From the IMG/VR virus record IMGVR_UViG_3300025034_000006: a DNA stretch of 64,000 nucleotides; one strand, 5' to 3'. Origin of the DNA: an uncultured virus (IMG/VR IMGVR_UViG_3300025034_000006) (lineage: Duplodnaviria; Heunggongvirae; Uroviricota; Caudoviricetes). Every line of letters begins with the position of its first letter. Positions within the stretch are counted from its first letter, which is position 1. The position numbers and the translations under genes were made by a program. Under the pieces are notes generated by a model. The model searched no databases. It had not been told where the DNA came from and was given only the letters and a program-made list of their open reading frames with translations. Of the stretch, positions 44,210-60,155 are shown one piece after another.

Positions 44210-44771
44210 GGAATGCCAGCCTGATGGCGATAGTGTGAGGCAACTCACATAAAGGGGGTAAGGCCACTTAACCCCGCCGGTCCCGATCGGTCAATTCAGG
44301 CAAGCGCAGTCAGGTCCGCGAGGACCGCTTCACCGGGATAACCTTGCAAACTTAGCATAGTTGGTAATGCAAACGACTCTTAATCGTGAGATCGGTGGTT
44401 CAAACCCACCAGTCTGCTCCAAACGCAAAGATTGCCACGACTGCATGTGAAAGACGCCTAATGCCATAGAGGCTTGCCTCAATGTGGCCCGACCTGATCT
44501 CGCAAGGTGATGGTTGGTTGGTGGAAGAAGTTTCGTTGGGCCCGCAAGCCCTTAATGGCTGGAGACAGTCAGCGGAATCGAAACTGCCGAATATCATGCA
44601 GTGTCACCGCAAATGCCAGCGGTCCCGTGAGAACCGGGAGAAAAAGGCGGCGTTGGTCTGGAACTGAGCTACCGCAAGGGGCTTGGTGGATAAGTCGGGA
44701 AGGTGACTCGCAAGGTCACTATAATCTGACGAATGACGGATCGTAGCGGGTGTAATCTCAACCTGCTTCCA
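44210..44771 (+). ncRNA. GOLLD-like large structured RNA with embedded tRNA
   Basis: Promoter at 44178; many GNRA-capped hairpins; long-range pairs CTGCATG/CATGCAG and GTTTCG/CGAAAC; internal tRNA; family call from architecture only. Confidence 0.5.
44346..44421 (+). tRNA. tRNA-Lys(CTT), inside the large RNA
   Basis: Cloverleaf, loop CTCTTAA, TTCAAAC, CCA. Confidence 0.85.
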
Positions 44772-47618: not shown

Positions 47619-47693
47619 GCTTCGTTAGCTCACCAGTAGAGCGCTGCCGTGACAAGGCAGAGGTAGGAGGGGCAGCACCTTCACGAAGCACCA
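47619..47693 (+). tRNA. tRNA-Val(GAC)
   Basis: Cloverleaf, T loop GGCAGCA, CCA. Confidence 0.85.
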
Positions 47694-50093: not shown

Positions 50094-50178
50094 GGGTGCG
50101 TGGCGACAGGGGAATTGGTAGACTCACCGGACTTAAAATTCGGCCGCTTTGTGGGTTCGAGTCCCACCGCACCCACCA
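50094..50178 (+). tRNA. tRNA-Leu(TAA), atypical
   Basis: Loop CTTAAAA; short variable loop; extra bases before D arm. Confidence 0.8.
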
Positions 50179-52156: not shown

Positions 52157-52216
52157 TTTTCGACGCGCTCTCAATTTTCAGTTGACAGTGATGTGCGAAT
52201 CGCTTATTCTTCTCCT

Positions 52217-52608
52217 CGTCAAGTGCTTCGGCATGAAGACTACGGTCGTAGAAGGCCATCTAAGTCAAGCGGAGACCCGAGGGCAGAACTCGGCACCTCC
52301 ACCAAAGACCCCTGCGGCCGCCTGAAACGCGGTCAGGGTGACGATCCGCCTAGGCTCTGGACGACGGTCCTTTGTAAGGCAGCGGGGTTCTTTGATGGGG
52401 GTGAATTTAGGATCGATCCGTAAGGCCGATGTGGAGAAGCGCCCCGTTTAGATACCGCCCGTATGCGGATCAAATTCATCAACTGTCAACGACAATGATG
52501 TGGTCGTCGCCAGCGAAGAGATTCGTCTCGCCGCGTAAGCGACAAAATCCCTAGGGCCTCACACCTCTAGGTGGCGCGTGGTCCCGAGCGTAGCAACAGT
52601 TTCGGGAC
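52217..52608 (+). ncRNA. ssrA: Two-piece circularly permuted tmRNA
   Basis: Acceptor piece ends CACCTCC-ACCA at 52304; spacer hairpin; coding piece starts GGGGGTG at 52397 (G3-U70); tag frame 52485-52538 VNDNDVVVASEEIRLAA*. Confidence 0.9.
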
Positions 52609-52609
52609 A

Positions 52610-53632: not shown

Positions 53633-56600
53633 ATGACCCCCTACACCCAACTCATTCACGACCTGATGGGTCGTGCATCTGGAGCCGTCACCGTCGAAGC
53701 AGCCGACGGGAGCTATATCACCAGCGATGACCTTCTCGAAGTCGGTGCGTTCGCTTCCCATGCCGATGACCCGTGGATTGATCTCGTCACCGACGAAGGC
53801 TTTGCCGTGGGCGTCTTCGTAGCTGGTAACCCGGAAGTCGTCGTTCCTCAGCCGTCCTTCGATGTCGATGGCGGAATGATCTACATGATCGACGGTGATC
53901 CGATCCCCGGCATGAAGCAGGGCCTGCATATGTGCCCTCTCAGCGTCTTCATGCATAAGGGCAAGCCTGACTTCGACGGGTTGAACTGGTATCTCCCGGA
54001 AGACCTCGACCTGAAAACGCCGGGATCGGATCGCCAGATCACCCTCATGACTGGTCGTCGCCGCGACGAAGGCCAAGGCAAGTGGAAAGAGATTTCCAGC
54101 ACCTTCGGCCAGTTCGAAACTGTGCTGCAAGATCACAAGGAAGGGCAGAAAGACGGTCCCTGCTTCTTACAAGGGAAGTCGGCCAACGGCGCTCGCAAAG
54201 CTGTTGCCATGATCGAGAACCACATCCTTGGGGTCGATCTCGATTCGGGCGCTCCCTTGACGGATGTGATGGAGACCATCCAGAAGTATGGTCTGGAAGC
54301 CGTCATCTACACGACTCACAGCCACCTCAAGGACACCAGTGTCATCAAGCGCGACCACTTCATCAAGTGGAACGAGGAAGGTGAGGTTGATGAAGAGGCT
54401 GTTCGCGATTACCTGATCAAGGTCAAGGGCACTTTGCCTCAGATCGTTGACGATCTGGAGATCATCGACGACGCCCACCACACCGAAGAGGGTGTGGTCA
54501 TCCTCGTCAAGCACAAGCCGATGCCCAAGTTCCGGGCGGTGTTCCCGCTCAAGGAAGCTTTCGTCTTCGCCAAGCGTGGTGGTTCCCAGAAGGATGCCAT
54601 CAACGAGTGGAAGGAGCGCTATGCCGGCTTCTGCACCGAACTGGGCTTGTTCTTCGACGAGAAGTGCGTCGATCCCGCACGCTTGTTCTATCTGCCTCGC
54701 CACCCATCCAAGAGCAAAAATCACGGCTCTTGGTTGGTAGTGGGTGAACCCCTCGATCTCGACAAGTTCGATCGTGTGAAAATGAAGCGCGGGCGCACCG
54801 GTAAGCGCAGTGCTGTCTCCAGTAATGCGTTCACGGACGCGGCCGGCGGCGCTGGCTATGACGACGAAGACGACGCCGATCGCTACATCACCTCTTGCGG
54901 TTTCAACCTCAAGGGATGGTCGATCAAATATGCCAAGCGCTTCGAAGTCCAGACCATGATCGAAGAAGTGGTTGGTGGTGACTTCGTTCGCGAATCCCGT
55001 GGTAACAAGCCGGGTGTCCATGTCGAATGTCCTTTCGAAGCTGAGCATTCAAGCTTTGGTGGTGGCGGCACCTTCGTGGTCAATGCGTCCGACAATCTGG
55101 ACGACGGATACGATGGTGGTTTCACCTTCACCTGCGTTCACAATTCGTGCGCCGGCCGGGATCGTCTCGATTATCTCAAGGAGATGATCGAACAGGAACT
55201 GATCACGGTTGCTGATCTCAAGAACAAGGACTTCCTGTTCGAACTGGAAGAGGACGAAGAGGAAGAAGATGTTCCGGCTCAGCGTGAGAAGCCGAAGAAG
55301 CACACCCGTCAGACAGATGCGGAACACCGGGAAGAGCATGAGGATCAGATCAACGATGATGACTTCGGTGATGACGAAGACTCGATGCTCAAGGCGTTCA
55401 ACCGGCGCTACGCGGTGATCCGCACCAGTGGTGGGGTCCGCATTCTTGTGGAGCCCCGGACGCCGGAAGATGATGTCGTTTTCGAAAGCCAGAACGACGT
55501 GGCGCTCTACGAGAAGAACCGCATCATCTGGGTGACAGAAGGTAAGCAAACCCGCAAGGTCGAAGCATTCAAGCAGTGGCTTGAGTGGGAGAAGCGTCGC
55601 ACCTATCGGAACGTCGTGTTCGCGCCGGGCGAGAAGACCCCGAAGGATGTTTACAATCTGTTTCAGGGTTGGCCTTTTGAAGCTGTCCCCACCTCGTGGG
55701 AAGAGGTTCTGGACAACAAGGACAAGCCGGTCGCGGGTGACTGGTCGATGCTGCGTGGTCACATCTACGAGAACATCTGCGAATCGAACGATGCCTATTT
55801 CGAGTGGCTGATGACATGGATCGCCATGCTTTTCCAGAAGCCTCAGGCAAAGCCCGGTTCAACGGTGGTTATCACCGGTAAGAAGGGGACTGGTAAGTCC
55901 ACGCTGTTCGATTACATCAACCAGCTTCTCGGTCGGTGTGGGATCACTGTGTCCCAGCGTAAGCAGATCGTCGGCCAGTTCAACGGTCACCTTGCCACCA
56001 CCTTGCTGATGGTCTGTGAAGAAGCCTTCTGGGCGGCCGATCCGCAAGCCGAAGGTGTCCTCAAGGACATGATCACCAACAAGTCGGTGCTGATCGAAAA
56101 GAAGGGCTACGATCCGATCCAGTCGCGGAATTACACGCGGCTGGCGCTGATCTCGAACAACGAATGGGTTGTTCCGGCGTCTCTCAAGGACGAACGTCGC
56201 TTCTTCGTGCTGCGATGCTCCGACGCGGTGCAGGGCAATATCCAATTCTTCGAGGACATGCGCGAGCAGATGGAAAAGAAGGGTGGTCTCGAAGCCATGC
56301 TCTATGATCTCCTCCACTGGGAACCTGTGGGCGGAACCTTCTCGACCTTGTTCACGCCGCCGGCAACTGCATATCTCCAGCAGCAGCAGATCGAGTCGCT
56401 GTCTGGTGTGCAGAAGTTCATGCTCGAACTGGTCAAGTCCGGGGTCTATGAAACCCACGATGACAAGGTGACGCCGATCGAACTGAACACCGACACCGAG
56501 ACGACTGTCTACGCTGTGGACATGCGTGCGGCTGTGGAGGATTACGTTCGGTTCCAGTTCTCCTCGGACAAGGCCAAGACCAGCTACGACGACATCTCGG

Positions 56601-56785
56601 CTGTGGTCACCGACTGGTTCGGTGCCCGAGAAATCAAGATGAAGGTCGATGGTCAGGTAAACGGGAAGCGCACCTTCATCTTCCCGCCGCTGTCTGAGGT
56701 CCGTTCGAAGCTCAAGGAAAACAAGGGTCTGGATGTCGAGGCAATGACCGAAGAGGCGGTCAAATCGATCCGGCTGCGGTCGTAA
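53633..56785 (+). CDS. Primase-helicase (primase-like N-terminus, SF3/D5-like NTPase)
   Basis: VDLD, YTTHSH, FRAVFP, Zn motif CPF..EH/CVHNSC, GKKGTGKST, ERRF. Confidence 0.85.
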   Translation: MTPYTQLIHDLMGRASGAVTVEAADGSYITSDDLLEVGAFASHADDPWIDLVTDEGFAVGVFVAGNPEVVVPQPSFDVDGGMIYMIDGDPIPGMKQGLHMCPLSVFMHKGKPDFDGLNWYLPEDLDLKTPGSDRQITLMTGRRRDEGQGKWKEISSTFGQFETVLQDHKEGQKDGPCFLQGKSANGARKAVAMIENHILGVDLDSGAPLTDVMETIQKYGLEAVIYTTHSHLKDTSVIKRDHFIKWNEEGEVDEEAVRDYLIKVKGTLPQIVDDLEIIDDAHHTEEGVVILVKHKPMPKFRAVFPLKEAFVFAKRGGSQKDAINEWKERYAGFCTELGLFFDEKCVDPARLFYLPRHPSKSKNHGSWLVVGEPLDLDKFDRVKMKRGRTGKRSAVSSNAFTDAAGGAGYDDEDDADRYITSCGFNLKGWSIKYAKRFEVQTMIEEVVGGDFVRESRGNKPGVHVECPFEAEHSSFGGGGTFVVNASDNLDDGYDGGFTFTCVHNSCAGRDRLDYLKEMIEQELITVADLKNKDFLFELEEDEEEEDVPAQREKPKKHTRQTDAEHREEHEDQINDDDFGDDEDSMLKAFNRRYAVIRTSGGVRILVEPRTPEDDVVFESQNDVALYEKNRIIWVTEGKQTRKVEAFKQWLEWEKRRTYRNVVFAPGEKTPKDVYNLFQGWPFEAVPTSWEEVLDNKDKPVAGDWSMLRGHIYENICESNDAYFEWLMTWIAMLFQKPQAKPGSTVVITGKKGTGKSTLFDYINQLLGRCGITVSQRKQIVGQFNGHLATTLLMVCEEAFWAADPQAEGVLKDMITNKSVLIEKKGYDPIQSRNYTRLALISNNEWVVPASLKDERRFFVLRCSDAVQGNIQFFEDMREQMEKKGGLEAMLYDLLHWEPVGGTFSTLFTPPATAYLQQQQIESLSGVQKFMLELVKSGVYETHDDKVTPIELNTDTETTVYAVDMRAAVEDYVRFQFSSDKAKTSYDDISAVVTDWFGAREIKMKVDGQVNGKRTFIFPPLSEVRSKLKENKGLDVEAMTEEAVKSIRLRS

Positions 56786-56897
56786 AAATTCTAGGACAAA
56801 TTGTCCGGAAAGCCTTGACAGGCATTTTACCTGCCGCTAGAGACATCCTCGCTAAACGTGATTTGTCACTTTCTGGTTTTCAACAAAGGAGGTTGTC

Positions 56898-56906
56898 ATG
56901 AAGTAA
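56898..56906 (+). CDS. Minigene Met-Lys-stop upstream of rtcB
   Basis: AGGAGG (56887-56892), 5 nt, ATG AAG TAA. Confidence 0.6.
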   Translation: MK

Positions 56907-56996
56907 GCAGTTAGGCCGCCAACCCAATATGGCATTAGAGATATGATGGCCGCGCTAGGGTAACACCAGCGCGGCCTTAGAAAAAGGGAGACAGAC

Positions 56997-58238
56997 ATGC
57001 GTATCGATCAGATTACCGATTCATTGGGTAACAAGAAGCTGGTGAAGCTCTGGGAGCCGGAAGGCTATCCATTCGAGCCCGAAGCTGTCGAGCAGATCAA
57101 CAACATGGCCCGGCTCCCGTTCGTGTTCAAGCACGTTGCTGTGATGCCTGATGCCCACGCCGGCAAGGGCTCCACTGTGGGCACCGTTTTCGCTACAAAG
57201 GGCGCGATCGTCCCGGCTGCTGTCGGAGTTGACATCGGCTGCGGAATGATGGCCGTCCGCACCACCCTGACCGCAATCGATCTTCCGGACAGCCTCTCCC
57301 ATATCCGTGGAATGATTGAGGCTGCTGTTCCGCATGGTCGTGGGTCGATGGATCAGATTCGCAGTGGGCGTGATCCCGGCTCGTGGGGTAACCCGACGCC
57401 GCAAGCGCAGTCTCGCTGGAAGTCGCTGGCCGACCGCTACGATGCGATCGTCGCCAAGCACCCGAAGATTGCCCAGAAGCGTCACCCGGTGCATCACATG
57501 GGCACGTTGGGAACCGGCAACCACTTCATCGAAATCTGTCTGGACGAAGACCAGAACGTGTGGGTGATGCTCCACTCGGGCTCGCGTGGTATCGGCAATG
57601 CGATCGGCACCTACTTCATCAACAAGGCGAAGGAGGAGATGCACCGGTATCATATCGCGCAGTATCTGCCGGATGAAGACCTGTCGTATCTGGTCGAACA
57701 TACCGAGGTCTATGACGATTACGTCGAGGCTGTCGGCTGGGCTCAGGACTTCGCGATGGCAAACCGCCAGACGATGATGGATGCCGTGTTGGGCGTGATG
57801 CGTCAGACCCTGCCGCCGTTCCTGTCCGATCAGATGGCGATCAACTGCCACCACAACTACGTGACCAAGGAGCAGCACTACGGCGAGCCTGTGTTGGTGA
57901 CCCGTAAGGGTGCCGTGCAGGCTCGTGAGGGCACCATGGGGATCATTCCGGGGTCGATGGGCACCGGTAGCTTCATCGTCCGTGGTCTCGGCAACCATCA
58001 CTCGTTCCACTCGTGCAGTCACGGGGCTGGGCGCGTGATGAGTCGCACCAAGGCGAAGAAGCTGATCTCGATGGAGCAGCACGCTGAGGCGATGAAGGGA
58101 ATCGAAGCTCGCTTGGATGCAGATGTGCTGGACGAAAGTCCGGCCGCCTACAAGCCGATCGGCGCTGTGATGGATGCTCAGAGCGATCTCGTCGAGATCG
58201 TTCACCGGCTCCGTCAGGTTCTCAACGTCAAGGGTTGA
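56997..58238 (+). CDS. rtcB: RNA 3'-phosphate/5'-OH ligase
   Basis: MPDAHAG, VGVDIGCG, GNHFIE, HSGSRG, HHNY, SHGAGR, AYK. Confidence 0.95.
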   Translation: MRIDQITDSLGNKKLVKLWEPEGYPFEPEAVEQINNMARLPFVFKHVAVMPDAHAGKGSTVGTVFATKGAIVPAAVGVDIGCGMMAVRTTLTAIDLPDSLSHIRGMIEAAVPHGRGSMDQIRSGRDPGSWGNPTPQAQSRWKSLADRYDAIVAKHPKIAQKRHPVHHMGTLGTGNHFIEICLDEDQNVWVMLHSGSRGIGNAIGTYFINKAKEEMHRYHIAQYLPDEDLSYLVEHTEVYDDYVEAVGWAQDFAMANRQTMMDAVLGVMRQTLPPFLSDQMAINCHHNYVTKEQHYGEPVLVTRKGAVQAREGTMGIIPGSMGTGSFIVRGLGNHHSFHSCSHGAGRVMSRTKAKKLISMEQHAEAMKGIEARLDADVLDESPAAYKPIGAVMDAQSDLVEIVHRLRQVLNVKG

Positions 58239-59915: not shown

Positions 59916-60155
59916 ATGACTGAGCAAGCTGTAGACGATCGCCTTCGTCTCCTGATCGAGCGTATCGAGCGCCTCGAAGAAGAGAAGAAGGGAATCGCCG
60001 ACGACATCAAGGATGTCTATGCTGAGGCCAAGGCTGTTGGTTTCGATCCCAAGATCATGCGTATGATCGTGCGTCTCCGGAAGATGAAGCCGGACGATCG
60101 CAGCGAGCAGGACATGATCCTCGAAACCTACAAGAACGCGCTGGGCATGGCCTGA
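59916..60155 (+). CDS. gapR: GapR-like nucleoid-associated protein (DUF2312)
   Basis: [31 protein letters not shown]. Confidence 0.9.

Follow-up and report, generated by a model that had tools for sequence, protein, structure and literature searches.

Two-codon leader minigenes are known from a few single loci, namely lambda bar, LEE1 of enterohaemorrhagic Escherichia coli (EHEC) and axe-txe, and their purpose is debated. In EHEC LEE1, an AUG-AAA-UAG minigene about 130 nt before ler undergoes translation; it works in cis, optimal ler expression depends on it, and its Lys codon is conserved (Islam et al. 2012, PMC3262186). The two-codon minigene mg2 of axe-txe raises txe translation in cis, for which nuclease protection was proposed (Kedzierska and Potrykus 2021, PMC8708949). 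A six-codon mini-open reading frame (mini-ORF) has been described for LEE4 (Lodato et al. 2012, as cited in PMC8708949 and PMC9943677). Work from the Belasco laboratory indicates that ribosomes on upstream ORFs obstruct RNase E as it scans from the 5' end, with an effect proportional to the strength of the Shine-Dalgarno sequence (SD), and that initiating ribosomes frozen by retapamulin strengthen this block and protect downstream RNase E sites in a reporter (PMC9943677). Here, we describe a Met-Lys-stop minigene (ATG AAG TAA) in a 64,000-nt stretch of DNA from the uncultured virus IMGVR_UViG_3300025034_000006 (the whole stretch is hereafter called the window), where it lies in the predicted 5' leader of the RNA ligase gene rtcB, on the same strand as this main ORF and upstream of it. 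We provide comparative evidence that the minigene is retained across a phage clade and read it, tentatively and with a little less than even confidence, as a conserved cis-acting ribosome-docking leader minigene of the EHEC LEE1/axe-txe kind that would set or raise downstream expression.

The bare motif in a single genome is no more than chance: the loose SD-start-codon-stop pattern occurs seven times in the window versus 5.88 times (standard deviation 2.54) in shuffled sequence. The strict pattern GGAGG-N4-7-ATG-NNN-TRA has its sole whole-genome match at this leader in Erythrobacter phage XM05 and likewise in Sphingobium phage Lacusarx, and has two matches, one of them at this leader, in a 176-kb near relative; a reversed control pattern matches once over all five records together. 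Shuffled 94-nt leaders contain the motif in 0.5-1.5% of trials per lineage, and a sense codon stands directly before a stop with a probability of about 0.046 per lineage. The window comes from a large alphaproteobacterial phage, and the clade to which it belongs consists of large tRNA-rich sphingomonad phages, with XM05, Erythrobacter phage vB_EliS-L02 and Lacusarx as the closest isolates (XM05 shares 84.8% DNA identity with the window across 97% of a 2-kb query).

This clade was defined for comparison by the C-terminus of the primase/helicase-like protein encoded upstream of the leader. Junctions between the primase gene and the next gene were gathered from a phage collection, from IMG/VR (with RtcB and primase C-terminal profiles) and from metagenome contigs, which left, after merging of duplicates and among the matches listed, 15 distinct lineages with primase-promoter-leader synteny. 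Metagenome contigs supplied at least six relatives, at least three of them new lineages, and the IMG/VR scan with the primase profile yielded no further lineages. The form SD-ATG-NNN-stop is present in 10 of the 15 lineages. AAG TAA follows the start codon in the window (and in four identical IMG/VR contigs), L006, L007, L008 and L087, and AAG TGA in XM05 and L009; the other forms are CGT TAA (L017), CGC TGA (L019) and AAC TAA (Lacusarx). One lineage, L086, has a five-codon ORF (ATG ATT TAC GGA CGA TAA) and four have no minigene (vB_EliS-L02, L014/L015, L084 and the outgroup Citromicrobium phage RXM).

Beyond promoter, SD, ATG and stop, the leaders are nearly unalignable, with 11 invariant columns among 11 leaders. 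The SD, the ATG and the ORF length are kept while the spacer, codon 2 and the stop (TAA or TGA) vary, a pattern that lends indirect support to translation of the minigene. In the primase tree, the three minigene-less ingroup lineages form one clade (support 88/96; the backbone is unresolved), so that a single loss or a single gain suffices to explain their distribution. As its check, the first-pass annotation had named a search for conserved SD-ATG-AAR-stop ahead of rtcB in phages and bacteria; with the minigene kept in two thirds of the lineages, lack of conservation cannot be held against it. Judged from this pattern of retention, the minigene is real and under selection.

The outcome of this check supports the first-pass annotation in part only. 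SD-ATG-NNN-stop is conserved in the phage clade, but codon 2 is not always AAR and bacterial matches are few: among 80 bacterial rtcB loci there was no conserved minigene, and the four matches found were loose and scattered. Likewise, 70 IMG/VR rtcB loci without the minigene gave four loose matches at scattered positions. As far as these loci tell, rtcB is not generally accompanied by the minigene.

A check against the sequence recovered in place all leader features that had been named in the first-pass annotation. The locus is laid out as follows:

53633..56785, plus strand: primase/helicase-like gene (1050 aa, DUF5906), upstream of the leader
56815..56843, plus strand: predicted promoter with -35 TTGACA (56815-56820), a 17-nt spacer and the -10-like TAGAGA (56838-56843)
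56858..56869, plus strand: small hairpin GTGA-TTTG-TCAC in the 5' untranslated region, found by eye
56885..56892, plus strand: minigene SD AAAGGAGG, which contains AGGAGG (56887-56892)
56898..56906, plus strand: two-codon minigene ATG AAG TAA (Met-Lys-stop), from sequence and conservation
56913..56919, plus strand: proposed competitor strand AGGCCGC, overlapping hairpin 1 by 2 nt
56918..56933, plus strand: hairpin 1, GCCA/TGGC, 4 bp with an 8-nt loop, from folding
56934..56947, plus strand: A/U-rich linker 5' of the GC hairpin, found by eye
56948..56976, plus strand: GC hairpin, 9 bp (GGCCGCGCT/AGCGCGGCC) with an 11-nt loop, -22.4 kcal/mol
56986..56991, plus strand: rtcB SD GGGAGA, 9 nt past the GC hairpin and unpaired with it
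56997..58238, plus strand: rtcB, 3'-phosphate/5'-OH RNA ligase (413 aa, PF01139 match)

The minigene has the complete two-codon form, i.e., an SD at working distance (5-nt spacer TTGTC), a start, one sense codon and a stop, and its SD is stronger than that of rtcB. In the window it is preceded by the predicted promoter 83 nt upstream and followed by the rtcB ATG (at 56997) 99 nt downstream; the transcript is predicted to start near 56850. The promoter fits a family of TTGAC-N16-19-YTA[G/T] sites of which the window holds 12 on both strands, several of them ahead of tRNA or transfer-messenger RNA (tmRNA) genes, and the form TTGAC-N17-TAG recurs at other intergenic sites. TTGAC is invariant in the 11 aligned leaders; a generic sigma-70 scan of the window left the leader promoter site uncalled. 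The downstream ORF is RtcB, with a full-length match to PF01139 (residues 33-413, E 2.5e-123).

Counted from the first base of the -35, the minigene ATG is 77-89 nt away in the 10 two-codon lineages (100 nt in L086); the ATG of the next gene follows that of the minigene at 91-323 nt, with frames 0, 1 and 2 all occurring. In the four minigene-less lineages, the gene's own strong SD-ATG lies 61-71 nt from the -35, which is the place of the minigene elsewhere (the rtcB start of L002 reads GGGAGGTTGTT-ATG-CGA and the window minigene AGGAGGTTGTC-ATG). Because it stands where a first gene would normally start, at a near-constant distance from the -35, the minigene appears tied to the promoter and not to rtcB. 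Eight of the 10 two-codon lineages have rtcB as the next gene; Lacusarx, L086 and L087 have a cytidine/dCMP-type deaminase there, with rtcB following in Lacusarx and L086 and, by eye, an ORF unlike RtcB following in L087. The placement of the minigene by the promoter and the deaminase-first operons speak against the sensor model of the first-pass annotation. All NCBIfam scores for the deaminase subtype (TadA or dCMP deaminase) were far below cut-off. Further along its 400-nt leader (about 2245-2260), the distant relative L087 has another short ORF, ATG ATC AAG CTG TAA, preceded by an SD of its own.

The sequence features, their conservation and the fixed position relative to the promoter are direct observations. 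From them, we infer the transcription start, translation of the minigene, an effect in cis and a mechanism that might run as follows. A promoter just 3' of the primase gene would make a leader mRNA carrying, about 35-40 nt from the predicted start, a near-perfect SD, an AUG, one preferred sense codon and a stop, and thereafter two hairpins and the weaker ribosome-binding site (RBS) of rtcB or, in some relatives, of a deaminase gene that rtcB follows. Host ribosomes would dock and cycle on the minigene, never leaving its SD, and this docking would act in cis, fixing or increasing the output of the downstream genes. Most likely, a parked ribosome would do so as an obstacle to 5'-end-dependent RNase attack on the leader, as others have argued for the mini-ORFs of EHEC LEE1, LEE4 and axe-txe. 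Codon 2 (AAG in seven lineages and CGT, CGC and AAC in one each) is always a preferred phage codon, as counted over 41 window ORFs: AAG is used 556 times versus 100 for AAA, AAC 356 times versus 152 for AAT, and CGC (288) and CGT (204) lead the Arg codons. Such a preference fits fast, non-toxic cycling.

Several points weigh against ribosome docking. The distance between minigene and gene and their relative frame both vary here, and in the published cases distance mattered and for axe-txe also frame (PMC3262186, PMC8708949). The conserved GC hairpin is unexplained by any model tested here; orthogonal stem-loops are readily bypassed by RNase E, and the scanning work concerns E. coli and not sphingomonads (PMC9943677). 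Moreover, one clade does well without a minigene, and the transcript start is a predicted one. Finally, a stretch with a CCTCC core between the -10 and the predicted start (56838-56851 in the window) shows complementarity to the first ORF's SD region (56885-56897), which beats 95% of shuffles in 7 of the 15 lineages and is marginal in three (among them the window, at 0.064). Since the stretch lies upstream of the predicted start, pairing would be confined to read-through RNA from the primase gene, where it would mask the minigene SD, and the element may thus differ between transcripts.

The CCTCC-SD complementarity was noted in the window, L003, L017, L019, L087, L084, L014 and L001. Its flanks co-vary between lineages (CCTCCCTGC/GCAGGGAGG, CCTCCCTCAT/ATGAGGGAGG, CCTCCCTGT/ACAGGGAGG), and L084 has a perfect 15-bp repeat. 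As an alternative to pairing in read-through RNA, the complementary stretch could be a DNA operator.

An alternative, which we regard as unlikely, is that the minigene is an evolutionary stub, i.e., the RBS and first codons of an ancestral first gene, cut off by an insertion or duplication of about 100-300 nt that brought the hairpins and a new RBS, and surviving as harmless or weakly useful. Its position agrees with such a history, as it occupies the gene-start position of other lineages and the minigene-less relatives start rtcB directly from an equivalent strong RBS, as in L002; in L017 (ATG-CGT) and L019 (ATG-CGC), it even encodes the Met-Arg with which rtcB starts. A neutral remnant, however, would be expected to lose its start or to drift in length, whereas five deep lineages retain SD, ATG and immediate stop in leaders that have diverged nearly beyond alignment. 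No further copy of the 90-nt segment from minigene to rtcB occurs in the window or at other loci, which leaves a repeated mobile cassette unsupported.

It is attractive to propose that the minigene senses tRNA damage, as the first-pass annotation did for tRNA-Lys. In its general form, this proposal makes the minigene a one-codon tRNA probe: once the tRNA that reads codon 2 has been cut or lacks its amino acid, the initiating ribosome would be parked with an empty A site and more RtcB would be made, which could proceed via leader remodelling or via a longer-lived RNase shield. A tRNA-repair ligase is indeed encoded directly downstream in the eight two-codon lineages named above and second in the operon in Lacusarx, and codon 2 specifies only Lys, Arg or Asn. 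The tRNAs of these three classes are the targets of PrrC, colicin D and colicin E5. Trapping of initiating ribosomes by retapamulin gave downstream RNase E sites more protection in a reporter (PMC9943677), so that dwell time would be readable in principle. Yet codon 2 varies and is always a preferred codon, which efficient initiation and termination predict equally well, and the leader offers neither a U-tract nor SD sequestration; the deaminase-first operons of Lacusarx, L086 and L087 also count against the probe. We hold the probe to be quite unlikely.

Two details of the original tRNA-Lys proposal bear on this assessment. The window does carry tRNA-Lys(CTT) twice, at 44346 and 48227, as had been pointed out. 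Its 27 tRNA genes at 44.3-51.5 kb cover most amino acids, however, and phage tRNAs for most amino acids make a match between codon and tRNA uninformative. The Lys codon is replaced by Arg (CGT, CGC) or Asn (AAC) codons in relatives. Secondly, AGGCCGC had been suggested to compete for the 3' strand of the GC hairpin. In the window, this pairing (AGGCCGC/GCGGCCT, -14.9 kcal/mol) was not equalled in any of 500 shuffles, which favours a probe acting by remodelling of the leader, but the local hairpin (-22.4 kcal/mol) is more stable by 7.5 kcal/mol. The competitor pairing beats shuffles at 5% or better in four of nine lineages only (window, L006, L008 and L019), three of which are near relatives of one another; in L007, XM05, L017 and Lacusarx, it is no better than shuffles, and L009 is borderline (0.074). 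The pairing is real in the window and not conserved across the lineages.

Given the codon choice, the absence of a conserved switch and the deaminase-first operons, a specific tRNA-Lys sensor is unlikely, and a tRNA-damage sensor in general is an attractive but unsupported elaboration. A minimal version would be an A-site probe whose dwell time reports intact charged tRNA and whose parked ribosome shields the leader from 5'-end-dependent decay. We consider this version improbable; if it were true, attack by anticodon nucleases would automatically boost synthesis of the repair ligase, and the codon (Lys, Arg, Asn) would have been adjusted in different phage lineages to the tRNA that is cut by the nucleases of their hosts. 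If dwell time on the minigene tunes mRNA survival, a simpler coupling of translation status to the expression of an RNA-repair enzyme could hardly be conceived.

Another view places the regulatory centre in the GC hairpin 5-10 nt upstream of the gene SD, which would be an operator for an RNA-binding protein of phage or host or a processing site, with the minigene only keeping a long leader occupied. The arms of this hairpin in the window are GGCCGCGCT (56948-56956) and AGCGCGGCC(T) (56968-56977). Across lineages, its stem differs in sequence and is always perfectly paired over 9-14 bp, and an A/U-rich stretch precedes it in the relatives too (by eye). The segment from stop to ATG folds with a z-score of -3.26 in the window and of -2.0 to -6.6 in six of seven segments (-1.1 in XM05). 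By eye, GGAAG is seen in the loop of five deep lineages (L009, L017, L019, L086 and L087) on wholly different stems, and this may be a protein- or RNA-binding loop. These regularities favour such a role; the window loop (AGGGUAACACC), however, is without GGAAG, no Rfam family matches, and in L019 some 115 nt separate the hairpin from the rtcB SD. We consider it unlikely that regulation centres on the hairpin.

Window-type leaders and L009 share the small hairpin, the A/U-rich linker and the GC hairpin after the minigene. The small hairpin of the 5' untranslated region has counterparts at the equivalent place in XM05 (GCGA-TTCG-TCGC) and L009 (CGAT-GAA-ATCG; both by eye), as does hairpin 1 (GCCGA/TCGGC in XM05, TGGC/GCCA in L009). 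A search with Rfam 15, including T-box and riboswitch families, gave no match at gathering score in the window leader and nothing in seven related leaders; the best sub-threshold match in the leader was flavi_FSE (22.8 bits, where the gathering score is 43). The 5' arm region of the GC hairpin (56944-56956) shares 13 identical nt with the part of bacterial rtcB genes that encodes a conserved ...MMA... motif (E 0.65 each), probably by coincidence.

Least credible among the alternatives that we weighed, and highly improbable, is an element acting in trans like lambda bar, whose cycling would shed fMet-aminoacyl-tRNA and tie up host tRNA or peptidyl-tRNA hydrolase for host takeover. Drop-off is reported to be greatest for two-codon ORFs that combine a strong SD with UAA as stop (PMC8708949), features seen here. 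Weak matches to PTH2 were found in XM05 (L189, 23.3 bits) and vB_EliS-L02 (L190, 22.4 bits; cut-off 23), but this puts the PTH2-like gene in a minigene-less phage as well, and neither the L009 genome nor Lacusarx has it. The records searched contained no match to PF01195 or PF00472. Furthermore, codon 2 is preferred and abundant where a scarce tRNA would be called for, and each genome has a single copy of the minigene.

Classical leader switches were rejected: a ribosome-mediated transcription attenuator of the trp/his type for want of a U-tract terminator and of conserved alternative pairing, and a stalling-dependent SD-unmasking switch of the erm/cat type because the gene SD lies unmasked 9 nt outside the stem. 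The weak U-tract already pointed out for the hairpin is confirmed, as its tail in the window is only TT followed by an A-run (TTAGAAAAA). None of the lineages inspected has a U-tract after the GC hairpin (there is no T-run in XM05, L009, L017 and Lacusarx), and a terminator scan was silent at the leader; TTT(T) tails do follow several other GC hairpins of the window. For the gene RBS, the probability of being unpaired ranges from 0.18 to 0.74 across lineages, with no consistent masking. With the SD outside the stem, no consistent RBS occlusion and no U-tract, the hairpin does not bear out the sensor model of the first-pass annotation, which had allowed for translational control. In the minimum-energy fold, 56857-56867 pairs with the rtcB start region (56988-56999) over 10 bp with a z-score of only -1.58, and this long-range pairing was rejected as a conserved feature, with one compensating change in L007, disruption in L008 and absence from XM05 and L009.

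The surroundings of the leader are rich in genes for translation RNAs. Two Rfam tRNA matches without an ARAGORN call lie at 47619-47690 and 50103-50171 (43.3 and 29.3 bits). Adjoining the tRNA cluster is a phage-borne, alpha-type, two-piece permuted tmRNA (52178-52609), which is preceded by a promoter TTGACA-N17-TATTCT. In the operon after rtcB, a GapR-like DNA-binding protein is encoded at 59916-60152 (PF10073, E 4.3e-36); GapR is otherwise a nucleoid protein of Alphaproteobacteria. Two sequencing runs carried the window sequence unchanged. In two wastewater runs labelled RNA-Seq, which are probably DNA, the leader was uncovered and only flanking coding parts were covered.

Our literature searches found no paper describing this phage leader, and the Lacusarx and vB_EliS-L02 papers, in their accessible portions, mention rtcB only as a repair gene and no leader element. 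Among the systems compared, the leader switches of trp/his and erm/cat resemble the locus in having a short leader ORF, putatively translated here, before a hairpin. They differ in that the phage leader has no conserved alternative pairing, no U-tract terminator and no SD masking, and a single sense codon gives no nascent peptide. Lambda bar is likewise a phage-borne two-codon ORF behind an SD; its codon is a rare one and its hallmark is toxicity to hosts defective in Pth, whereas the minigene described here has a preferred codon and sits in the leader of a specific operon. The axe-txe minigene and the LEE4 mini-ORF share with it a strong SD and a very short leader ORF, and for them action in cis is reported and RNase E protection proposed; they are single loci in E. 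coli test systems, whereas here the support is evolutionary and comes with conserved hairpins that are unneeded there.

Closest to the phage minigene is EHEC LEE1, which likewise has a Met-Lys-stop ORF with its own SD in a long leader, about 100-130 nt before the main start, and conserved among relatives. Unlike the phage minigene, it is experimentally shown, its codon is always Lys (here also Arg or Asn), its spacing to the gene is critical (here 91-323 nt) and it is chromosomal and bacterial, not phage-borne. The minigene is most probably an element of the LEE1/axe-txe kind and, as far as our searches show, the first with clade-wide evolutionary support in phages. Its clade-wide retention amid diverged surroundings is unusually clean evolutionary evidence that so tiny an ORF is functional, and with XM05 and Lacusarx in culture, the phage counterpart of these bacterial minigenes is open to experiment.

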